This document shows positions 4,991 through 6,466 of a stretch of 64,000 bases of DNA, one piece after another (the stretch's first letter is position 1; every line of letters begins with the position of its first letter). Source of the stretch: an uncultured Bacilli bacterium (GTDB lineage: Bacteria; Bacillota_I; Bacilli_A; RF39; UBA660). Where the stretch lies: positions 5,153 to 69,152 of the forward strand of contig CALVXC010000002.1 of assembly GCA_944368805.1 (NCBI GenBank). The letters run 5' to 3'. Under the pieces are notes generated by a model. It was not told the origin of the DNA and searched no databases. It saw nothing but the letters and a program-made list of their open reading frames with translations. The position numbers and the translations under genes are program-made.

Positions 4991-5374
4991 TTGGTTTTTG
5001 TTTCAGACTACACCGGACCAACAGGCGCTACTGGAGCTAGTGGAGCAACAGGAACAGCTGGAGCAACAGGAGCAACAGGGCCAACTGGGCCAACCGGACC
5101 AACCGGACCAACCGGAGCTAGTGGAGCAACAGGAACAGCTGGAGCAACAGGAGCAACAGGGCCAACCGGACCAACAGGACCAACAGGGCCAACCGGACCA
5201 ACAGGAGATACAGGAGCAACAGGGCCAACAGGTGCTACACCAATTTTAACTATTGGTACAGTAAATACTGGTGCACCTGGAACATCAGCAGCAGCAGATA
5301 TAACAGGAACAGCACCTAACTTTGTTTTGAATCTTACTATTCCACAAGGACCAACCGGACCAACTGGACCATAG
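4991..5374 (+). CDS. Collagen-like G-X-T repeat protein fragment (BclA-like). TTG start, no RBS; stop lies 3 nt before the GT gene.
   Basis: (GPT/GAT)n repeats, with an internal ~75-bp DNA duplication. Non-collagenous core [36 protein letters not shown] is homologous to the core of ORF 201-482. A 26-nt block gctactggagctagtggagcaacagg is identical in both cassettes. Confidence 0.5.
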
Positions 5375-5377
5375 CAT

Positions 5378-6466
5378 ATGGAAAAAAATAAATATAAAAT
5401 CGCTGTTTATGCTATTTGTAAAAACGAAGGAAAATTTATTGATCGTTGGGTAGATTCAATGCAAGAAGCAGATGATATATTTGTTTTAGATACTGGTTCT
5501 GATGATGATTCAGTATCTAAATTAAAAAAACGAAACGTTAATGTTTATCAAGAAGTAATTGATCCTTGGCGTTTCGATGTGGCTCGAAATAAATCGCTAG
5601 CGTTAGTACCTGAAGATTATGATATTTGTGTTTGTACTGATTTAGATGAAGTATTTGATAAAGGCTGGCGTCAAGAAATAGAAAAAAATTGGAAGCCAGA
5701 TAATGATAGTATGCGATATAATTTAAATTGTAATTTTGACCAATATGGTAACCCTGGAGTAAGTTTATATATTGAAAAAATTCATACTAAGAAAAATTTT
5801 AAATGGGTTTATCCTATTCATGAAGTATTAGAATTTACTGGTGAAAACAAAAATACTTCAATTTGTGATACTATTAATTTAAATCATTATCCAGATGTTA
5901 CAAAATCACGTGGTCAATATTTACCACTATTAGAAATGGCTGTTAAAGAAATGCCTGATAACGATCGAGTATGGCATTATTTAGGTAGGGAATATATGTA
6001 TTATCGAAGATGGGAAGATTGTATTGAAGCCTTGACTCATCATATAAATTTACCATCATCTGTTTGGAAAGATGAGAGATGTGCATCAATGCGATTTATT
6101 TCACGCGCATATTTTGCCCTAGGGAAATATGATGAGGCTAGAAAATGGTTGGATAAAGCTGTTTTAGAAGCTCCTTATCTACGCGAATCTTTTGTTGAAT
6201 ATGGATCTTTAGAATACTATTTTGAAAATTATGAAAAAGCTATAAAATTATTAGAACAAGCTTTAACAATTAAAGAACGTAGTAAAACTTATATCAACGA
6301 GCCATTTAGTTTTGATAGTACTATTTTTGATATACTATCTATTTGCTATTATCATTTAAATGATAAACAAAAAGCTATTTATTATGGTAAAAAAGCTTTA
6401 GAAATGAATCCTGATGATGAGCGAATAAAAAATAATCAAAAATACTTTTTAGAAATGGAAGAGTAA
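5378..6466 (+). CDS. GT-A-fold glycosyltransferase (family-2-like) with C-terminal TPR repeats
   Basis: N-terminal [17 protein letters not shown]...[10 protein letters not shown] with a DLDE DxD-like motif. The C-terminal half shows TPR-like helical repeats. Confidence 0.55.

Follow-up and report, generated by a model that had tools for sequence, protein, structure and literature searches.

A collagen-like, putative spore-surface gene split by two serine recombinase elements ahead of a glycosyltransferase gene in an uncultured Bacilli bacterium

The present analysis concerns a collagen-like repeat region, and the glycosyltransferase gene that follows it, in a stretch of 64,000 nucleotides (hereafter referred to as the window) from an uncultured Bacilli bacterium of the RF39 lineage (assembly GCA_944368805.1, contig CALVXC010000002.1, positions 5,153 to 69,152 of the forward strand). 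The initial annotation had read the open frame of glycine-X-threonine (GXT) repeats at 4991-5374 of the plus strand as a substrate gene co-transcribed with the enzyme gene downstream of it. In fact, the region makes up only the last third of a collagen-like gene, putatively for a spore-surface protein, which is divided into three pieces by two mobile elements in this strain. The public contigs and loci used for comparison carry the prefix L. The features required for the argument are listed below in window coordinates.

1-195, plus strand: 3' end (last 64 codons and stop) of the gene for Rec1, the large serine recombinase (LSR) of element 1, 552 amino acids (aa) in full
1-208, plus strand: right end of element 1 (~6.4 kb), the remainder of which lies upstream of the window, as read from the 100% identity of window and L101
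207-448, plus strand: collagen segment 2, consisting of (GAT)n, a module and then (GXT)n, colinear with the intact homologues
449-5013, plus strand: integrative element 2, 4,565 bp with the AC core counted once
3254-4972, plus strand: gene for Rec2, the LSR of element 2, 572 aa, with Resolvase, Recombinase and Zn_ribbon_recom domains
5012-5374, plus strand: collagen segment 3, consisting of (GXT)n, a module, PTGPTGP and the stop; the true coding part of the repeat cassette
5378-6466, plus strand: protein glycosyltransferase with a GT-A domain and tetratricopeptide repeats (TPR), SgtA-like in architecture, 362 aa, DxD motif at 5639-5647
6457-6475, plus strand: terminator-like hairpin closing the collagen-glycosyltransferase unit, from the terminator scan

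The gene order reported by the initial annotation is correct, the frame at 4991-5374 ending in a TAG stop (5372-5374) that is followed by the three nucleotides CAT and by the ATG at 5378. The nine-base repeat GGNCCNACN has 17 matches in the whole window against none in shuffled sequences, all of them confined to 369-448 and 5015-5367; Tandem Repeats Finder gives periods of 9, 27 and 81 nucleotides (nt) in the collagen repeats, and the Pfam Collagen model scores the GXT region at 58-64 bits. Element 2 ends at 5013, so that the TTG 'start' at 4991 and the opening 7-8 codons of the frame consist of mobile-element DNA, bases 4991-5013 encoding the residues MVFVSDYT; the stop of Rec2 lies 19 nt before this 'start'. 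Neither a ribosome-binding site nor a promoter was found for the frame. Lacking both and starting within element DNA, the frame is a mechanical open reading frame (ORF) and not a gene. The scan for sigma-70 promoters and terminators gave counts not above those of shuffled sequences, and an Rfam search of window positions 1-7000 returned nothing over noise.

The other two pieces of the gene were located upstream. Segment 1, comprising the promoter and a 29-codon leader, lies ~6.2 kb upstream of window base 1 and was seen in the public contig L101, which matches the window at 100% identity except for a difference of 54 nt in repeat number; there, a 30-codon ORF with a ribosome-binding site reads MNNYERALEKIAQDQRCKPLCCFGPTGAT/V and then stops. 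Segment 2 is contained in a second collagen-like frame (201-482) directly following the 3' end of the serine recombinase gene at 1-195, and adjoins segment 1 without interruption in L182-L184, and segment 3 in L002 and L184. The C-terminus of segment 3 is the natural end of the protein family. When the pieces are joined at the AC dinucleotide of each crossover, an in-frame ORF of 228 aa results. Two contigs of one metagenome-assembled genome (MAG; GCA_947853065.1), L183 and L002, share an overlap of 59 nt and, when merged, contain an intact gene of 198 aa, then 3 nt and then the identical glycosyltransferase gene. The reconstructed ORF and this intact allele are colinear and differ solely in repeat number. 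The reconstituted protein is also colinear with intact family proteins of 180-220 aa (59-62% identity, 99% coverage), which share a layout of leader, short GXT run, module 1, GXT run, module 2 and a conserved C-terminal end; the homologue search and the colinearity comparison were made with a reconstruction of 231 aa, and the difference of three residues does not affect the outcome. No intact protein of this species is present among 5.8 billion protein clusters, the intact allele being known only as the two overlapping contigs. As sequenced, the collagen gene is off and its protein cannot be made; precise recombination at both AC cores would restore the natural allele together with its 3-nt junction with the glycosyltransferase gene.

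The repeat number in segments 2 and 3 (369-448 and 5012-5239) varies between strains and assemblies, always in frame (L001, L165, L175, L005), and segment 2 is called as a product of 75, 93 or 117 aa, segment 3 as one of 85, 118 or 127 aa.

The boundaries of both elements were defined to the base. The Rec1 fragment in the window has a 100% tblastn match to Rec1 of L001 and L101 and a Pfam DUF4368 match, and the full gene encodes Resolvase, Recombinase and Zn_ribbon domains. At the right attachment site (attR1) the crossover AC is at 207-208, with the P-arm motif TTTGACCTTT at 184-193, while the left end of element 1 is at L101 8508-8509, the crossover falling on the AC of CTAC. The dyad of attP1, read from the sequence as TTTGACCTTT-N13-AC-N13-AAAGGACAAA, predicts an empty site of GGTGCT[AC]TGGAGCA, which is exactly what is found in L182, L183 and L184 from other samples, where the protein reads ...CCFGPTGAT/GATGATG...; the attB1 junction is GGTGCTACTGGAGCA. 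A crossover within the shared TGTGT, which would give ...GATVSTGAT... and a protein of 231 aa, was considered and dropped, because the dyad is centred on the AC of CTAC and the empty sites read GAT/GAT. Likewise, an inverted copy of the right end inside L001 was considered as the left end of element 1 and found to be a weak AT-rich match rather than an att site.

For element 2, the cores are AC at 447-448 (attL2) and AC at 5012-5013 (attR2), and the dyad of attP2 has perfect geometry, ATTGGTTT (4990-4997)-N14-AC-N14-AAACCAAT (463-470). The empty attB2, GGGCCAACCGGACCA[AC]CGGACCAACAGGCGCT (junction sequence CCGGACCAACCGGACCAACAGGCGCT), is present in L002, which was found among the public contigs carrying the identical glycosyltransferase; here the first fragment runs straight into the second as ...GATGPTGPT/..., directly upstream of that gene. 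The two junctions overlap by only 11 nt, and the empty junction is therefore no k-mer misjoin or other assembler artefact. Thus, the complete set of LSR domains (Resolvase, Recombinase and zinc-ribbon recombinase) is accompanied by a 2-bp core shared by attL and attR, imperfect dyad-symmetric P arms and matching empty attB sites, as expected of integrative elements. Rec2 matches the phrog_95 integrases (E 6e-83), shows a weak DUF4368 match (22 bits against the Pfam cutoff of 25) and is only 39% identical to Rec1.

Besides Rec2, element 2 carries the following features, to which an attachment-like site within segment 3 is added.

449-535, plus strand: element-encoded tail truncating segment 2, with the stop at 480-482, read from the sequence
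939-1541, plus strand: CPBP/Rce1-like intramembrane protease, element-2 cargo (Pfam PF02517, 42 bits)
1681-2217, plus strand: predicted membrane protein without a family match, element-2 cargo, called elsewhere as 144 or 178 aa
2953-3228, plus strand: DUF6870 gene directly upstream of Rec2 (Pfam PF21757, 72.5 bits)
5087-5118, plus strand: second attB-like site in segment 3, core AC at 5102-5103, used elsewhere by a third related element

The truncating tail is followed at about 495-535 by an AT-rich hairpin with a T-run, which is not in the terminator-scan list because it is poor in G+C. The order of DUF6870 and recombinase genes is common to element 1, element 2 and the Rec2 family, and the DUF6870 protein is a candidate accessory or directionality factor. 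A literature search on DUF6870 found no papers, and a publication on recombination directionality factors mentions neither TnpX, TndX nor any DUF family (PMC12286644). The sequence CATAGGTT stands 31 nt before the TTG start of the element-2 DUF6870 gene; in the AT-rich subfamily a weak CATAnnnT occurs 27-31 nt before DUF6870 (31 nt in this strain).

Element 1 contains small minus-strand ORFs, DUF7895, an AAA ATPase, DUF92, SocA_Panacea, DUF6870 and the 552-aa Rec1. PADLOC and PHROGs searches of the element cargo returned only generic ATPase and integrase matches, and the cargo is not phage-like. The cargo of element 1 (L101:8510-12650) is reminiscent of a small defence or addiction island: its AAA_15/AAA_21 ATPase gives generic matches to defence ATPases (AriA, PtuA, AbiLi), its SocA_Panacea antitoxin-type protein is accompanied by a degenerate second copy, and three small ORFs lie on the minus strand. 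In element 2, a non-coding stretch that is relatively rich in G+C (2330-2890) is conserved in L169 and L170 and includes a 31-nt perfect-geometry palindrome (2571-2601/2602-2632) as well as longer-range complementarity of ~2500-2520 with ~2670-2700; it has no Rfam match and could function in transfer, as its origin, or in recombination, as a site, or else encode a structured RNA.

Occupancy of the collagen gene was found to differ among public contigs. Elements 1 and 2 are both present in the window, L101 and many other contigs (the samples with an occupied locus include ERZ15237419 and ERZ24773480), element 2 occurs with a third element (E3) in L169, E3 alone is present in L184, and GCA_947853065.1 is free of elements. 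L169 has a sequence identical to that of the window up to 5103 and then continues into a variant left end, the same junction being present in L184. The left end of E3 (L169:2455-3450, L184:3990-4857) is 84% identical to that of element 2 and lies 90 nt further into segment 3; E3 carries a tRNA-like sequence. Past this point, L169 turns G+C-rich while L184 stays AT-rich, and L169 may for this reason be chimeric.

The relatives of Rec2 were examined in 36 metagenome loci of the Joint Genome Institute (JGI) with 50-63% identity. In 15 of these, compared with a background of 0.75%, a collagen-like run lies within 300 nt of the recombinase stop. The run is on the same strand in seven cases and on the opposite one in eight, and several of the opposite-strand cases adjoin a 5' fragment made up of leader and GXT repeats. 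The other flanks are different genes, several of them repetitive. Other species (L011, L055, L056) likewise have recombinases that abut, or lie within, the collagen gene neighbouring the glycosyltransferase. Collagen-like repeat DNA is a habitual target of the LSR family to which the elements belong.

Three other species (L011:6522-8591, L055:6670-8757, L031:19-267) have a different recombinase of ~690 aa, which shows a clear DUF4368 domain (TnpX/TndX-like) and terminates within the 5' end of the collagen gene, the element-derived N-terminus reading (M/L)E(L/F)SNL...; the element of this recombinase may be conjugative, as an upstream ORF resembles, by eye only, an ArdC-type conjugative-element protein. 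Most of the JGI elements of the Rec2 family (L110-L148) share a conserved block ~40-110 nt upstream of DUF6870, GCATGAATG...TTGAATATAnATGAGCAACCACAAATTGCTT...AAGGGGG, with an AGCAA/TTGCT hairpin, which may be a promoter/operator or an RNA element and is absent from the window's own elements.

The product of 5378-6466 is, as the initial annotation had proposed, a glycosyltransferase with a GT-A domain, a DxD motif and TPR; the absence of a GT-A fold or DxD motif had been named beforehand as the finding that would tell against it, and both are present. The AlphaFold model (predicted local distance difference test score 92.4) matches the GT-A and TPR enzymes SunS and ThuS over its full length (E 2e-16, template modelling score 0.63), and a profile search against PDB sequences matched GmaR and SunS. 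The motifs DTGS.D (38-43) and D88-x-D90-E91 are invariant in 22 homologues, reading D88-L-D90 in this enzyme. In the profile searches, the TPR part gave strong matches (TPR_2 60 bits, TPR_12 48.7 bits, with helices at 181-361 of the model), while GT2 was borderline at 22.8 bits against a cutoff of 23.3; the enzyme has more than 8,000 homologues, most of them with PF00535. Residues 276-360 (6203-6457) also match TPR_P4H (30 bits, cutoff 27), the peptide-substrate-binding domain of collagen prolyl 4-hydroxylase, which may be generic cross-matching of TPR, yet is apt for a binder of collagen repeats.

The neighbourhood of this enzyme was examined in 80 related loci of other species with glycosyltransferase orthologues of 52-59% identity. 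In 25 loci the end of a collagen-like ORF on the same strand is no more than 30 nt from the orthologue, in 44 no more than 300 nt, and in many the leader is homologous to that of the present gene (L038 and L045 read MNNYERAMRKIQEDQCCKP..., and L057 is of the same kind). The pairing of collagen and glycosyltransferase genes as neighbours is conserved. Considered jointly, the split-gene structure and this pairing are very probable.

Several lines of evidence suggest a role of the collagen gene at the spore surface. About 30 of 40 collagen genes have the motif CATAnnnTA at 25-32 nt (about 29) upstream of the start codon, where 0.18 would be expected by chance, and this gene is one of them (L101 8395); judged from its sequence, it is a putative -10 box of a mother-cell-type sigma factor and suggests expression in the mother cell. 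In Clostridioides difficile, bclA1-3 are sigmaK-dependent (PMC3789822). The orthologue in L038, which has the same leader, includes a BclA_C domain (65.5 bits); this domain is absent from the reconstituted protein. No NCBIfam model of the Bacillus-type exosporium leader matches, the leader of this family being of its own type, MNN..KI..DQ.CKP.CC. The sigF and spoVA genes claimed by the initial annotation were recovered in the window, which encodes SpoVAC, SpoVAD and SpoVAE above the NCBIfam cutoffs and a SigF-like sigma factor. Only 8 nt separate the sigF-like gene (48135-48794) from a SpoIIAA-like anti-anti-sigma gene (47770-48126) upstream of it, so that the gene for the SpoIIAB anti-sigma kinase, present between the two in the canonical spoIIAA-spoIIAB-sigF operon, is missing there; spoVAC/AD/AE come directly after the sigF-like gene.

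Synteny, the -10 box, the spoVA and sigF genes and the precedent of SgtA together make a spore-surface pair of substrate and enzyme well supported for the intact allele. The pair proposed by the initial annotation is supported to this extent, and a glycosylated spore-surface collagen is plausible with it, while the GXT cassette is not a self-standing co-transcribed gene and the substrate gene is split in this strain, where it would stay off unless both elements excised themselves.

In the explanation considered best, to which a probability of about 0.5 is assigned, the locus would be an operon of two genes, the first encoding a small BclA-type collagen-like spore-surface protein and the second an SgtA-like GT-A and TPR O-glycosyltransferase that would glycosylate the Thr of the GXT repeats in the product of the first. 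Both elements integrated at an AC dinucleotide in the array of GXT repeats, where AC begins a Thr codon, and Rec1 and Rec2, perhaps with the adjacent DUF6870 protein, would still catalyse excision. Excision would most likely take place in the mother cell during its terminal differentiation, as for skin/sigK, SPbeta/spsM and gin/gerE; the elements would then remain in the germ line while the spore still received the glycoprotein. Excision specific to the mother cell is by itself a tentative proposal, favoured because of the analogy with skin, SPbeta, vfbin, vrin and gin, the intactness of all parts and the weak CATAnnnT before DUF6870. The LSR elements within mother-cell sporulation genes that have been studied by experiment are all excised in the course of sporulation (PMC4191935, PMC5595907, PMC5025042).

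A number of observations weigh against this explanation. The full CATAnnnTA is absent ahead of both recombinase genes and both DUF6870 genes of this strain. Among the public contigs, no sample showed both the empty and the occupied form of a site, and the empty sites may therefore simply represent naive strains. The relatives of Rec2 insert in both orientations and also into non-collagen repetitive genes, cargo varies, and the third element uses the same collagen gene, so that the family looks like ordinary active mobile DNA. In one sample (L098:1-430), an internal deletion/frameshift truncates Rec1 (...NSLVKLASR and a stop), which would immobilise element 1 there. As an exosporium glycoprotein is probably dispensable, an insertion could persist without rescue. 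The likeness of the glycosyltransferase to SgtA rests on architecture, size and gene neighbourhood.

One alternative is plain insertional inactivation, in which ordinary mobile DNA preferring collagen repeats would have left the gene permanently dead in this strain, the glycosyltransferase being an orphan or read through from Rec2 and the glycoprotein being made only in strains with the intact allele. Polymorphic occupancy between strains and samples, the existence of a fully intact allele, the lack of a called intact protein among the protein clusters, the varying cargo and third element, insertions in both orientations and in non-sporulation targets, the decayed Rec1 and the want of a clear sporulation promoter ahead of the recombinase genes all agree with it. 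It is nevertheless considered unlikely, though the strongest of the alternatives: most contigs retain all three gene pieces, the two recombinase genes and the att sites in intact form, with window and L101 100% identical, excision by the LSRs would give back exactly the natural allele, and the published examples in mother-cell genes all excise.

A reversible or stochastic switching of the spore-surface glycoprotein in the population, not tied to the mother cell and similar to active lysogeny at comK, appears improbable. Recombinases of the DUF4368 type (TnpX/TndX-like) catalyse both excision and insertion. One gene offers several attB-like sites, with element combinations differing among strains, and the assembly graph of the co-assembled MAG branches exactly at the CTAC core, where the 59-nt overlap corresponds to k=59 as inferred from the name of a sibling contig in the same accession series. 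Set against these, neither an excised circle nor a mixed state was found in any single sample, and two or three independent excisions would all be needed to turn the gene on.

Translation of an autonomous GXT gene from 4991, co-transcribed with the glycosyltransferase gene as it stands, is highly improbable. The open frame does stop 3 nt before the glycosyltransferase start, and read-through from Rec2 could reach it, as no terminator lies in between; however, 4991-5013 is element DNA without a ribosome-binding site, the product would be without the conserved leader and module 1 found in all intact homologues, and the empty-site alleles already contradict it. That the pieces are fragments of a prophage tail fibre is scarcely credible, for although collagen-like repeats are common in phage tail fibres and one database match has a phage tail collar domain (PF07484), phage structural genes are absent, the flanks are core chromosome, and the conserved glycosyltransferase synteny, the mother-cell-type -10 box and the BclA_C domain of an orthologue all speak for a spore-surface gene.

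The operon split by two LSR elements corrects the gene model at this locus, where annotation gives three meaningless small ORFs (public calls of 30, 75-117 and 85-127 aa) and misses a conserved operon for a putative spore-surface glycoprotein. Collagen-like BclA-type genes thereby join the short list of sporulation-related genes interrupted by serine-recombinase elements, and one recombinase family is seen to attach repeatedly to collagen-repeat DNA. Within one uncultured gut species, some strains have an intact gene and others a gene with one or two interruptions, three insertion sites being used among the strains, which could mean heritable or switchable variation in spore surface, adhesion and antigenicity. 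It is doubtful as a whole, though worth stating, that the elements are excised by their own recombinases in the mother cell or switch in the population, that several rearrangements control the collagen gene and that the recombinase family is specialised on collagen-repeat codons as a safe harbour; if programmed excision or switching were true, the glycosylated spore surface of a gut commensal would be controlled by several rearrangements within one 700-bp gene. As the att sites are defined to the base, the recombinases are directly testable in vitro and might serve as integration tools.

Both the BclA-SgtA-type pairing and gene-splitting LSR elements are already known; the literature searches turned up no case of an LSR element targeting a collagen-like gene, nor of such a gene carrying several elements. 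Among solved folds and sequences, the glycosyltransferase is closest to the S-glycosyltransferases SunS and ThuS and to Listeria GmaR, which likewise fuse a GT-A domain to a TPR-like peptide-binding domain and all glycosylate a protein or peptide; identity to them is only 16-18%, and their substrates are a bacteriocin Cys or flagellin. With the Tn4451/Tn5397-type elements (TnpX/TndX), the present elements share large serine recombinases with a DUF4368-like C-terminus, small non-phage size with variable cargo and crossover at a 2-bp core between imperfect inverted repeats. The core dinucleotide of the Tn4451/Tn5397 type is GA, unlike the AC found here; in addition, the DUF4368 match of Rec2 is below the cutoff, no resistance or mobilisation genes were recognised, and the target is made up of collagen-repeat codons.

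The substrate and enzyme genes resemble bclA3-sgtA of C. difficile, where SgtA, a protein of 358 aa with GT-A and four TPR encoded next to bclA3, adds beta-O-GlcNAc to Thr of the BclA3 collagen repeats (PMC7157674). Both systems place a GXT-repeat substrate gene beside an enzyme of ~360 aa with GT-A and C-terminal TPR in a spore-forming host, and the mother-cell-type -10 box found here recalls the sigmaK control of C. difficile bclA3 (PMC3789822). They differ in that sgtA lies upstream of bclA3, whereas the present glycosyltransferase gene is 3 nt downstream; in that the present protein is small (198-228 aa), with another, Cys-rich leader and two ~35-aa beta-modules and without BclA_C; and in that its gene is split by mobile elements. 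In this last respect, the locus is similar to skin/sigK, SPbeta/spsM, vfbin/spoVFB, vrin/spoVR and gin/gerE (PMC4191935, PMC5595907, PMC5025042), where an LSR element lies inside the ORF of a mother-cell gene, a probable one in the present case, with the recombinase gene at the element end beside att and precise excision restoring the ORF; like gin, the present elements are small and are not prophages. Of the features that define this group, in-frame restoration is found here, and the presumed mother-cell nature of the target is read from its promoter motif and family membership only. Unlike in those systems, the target is a collagen-repeat gene, occupancy is strongly polymorphic, and two elements, with a third in other strains, occupy a single gene of ~700 bp.

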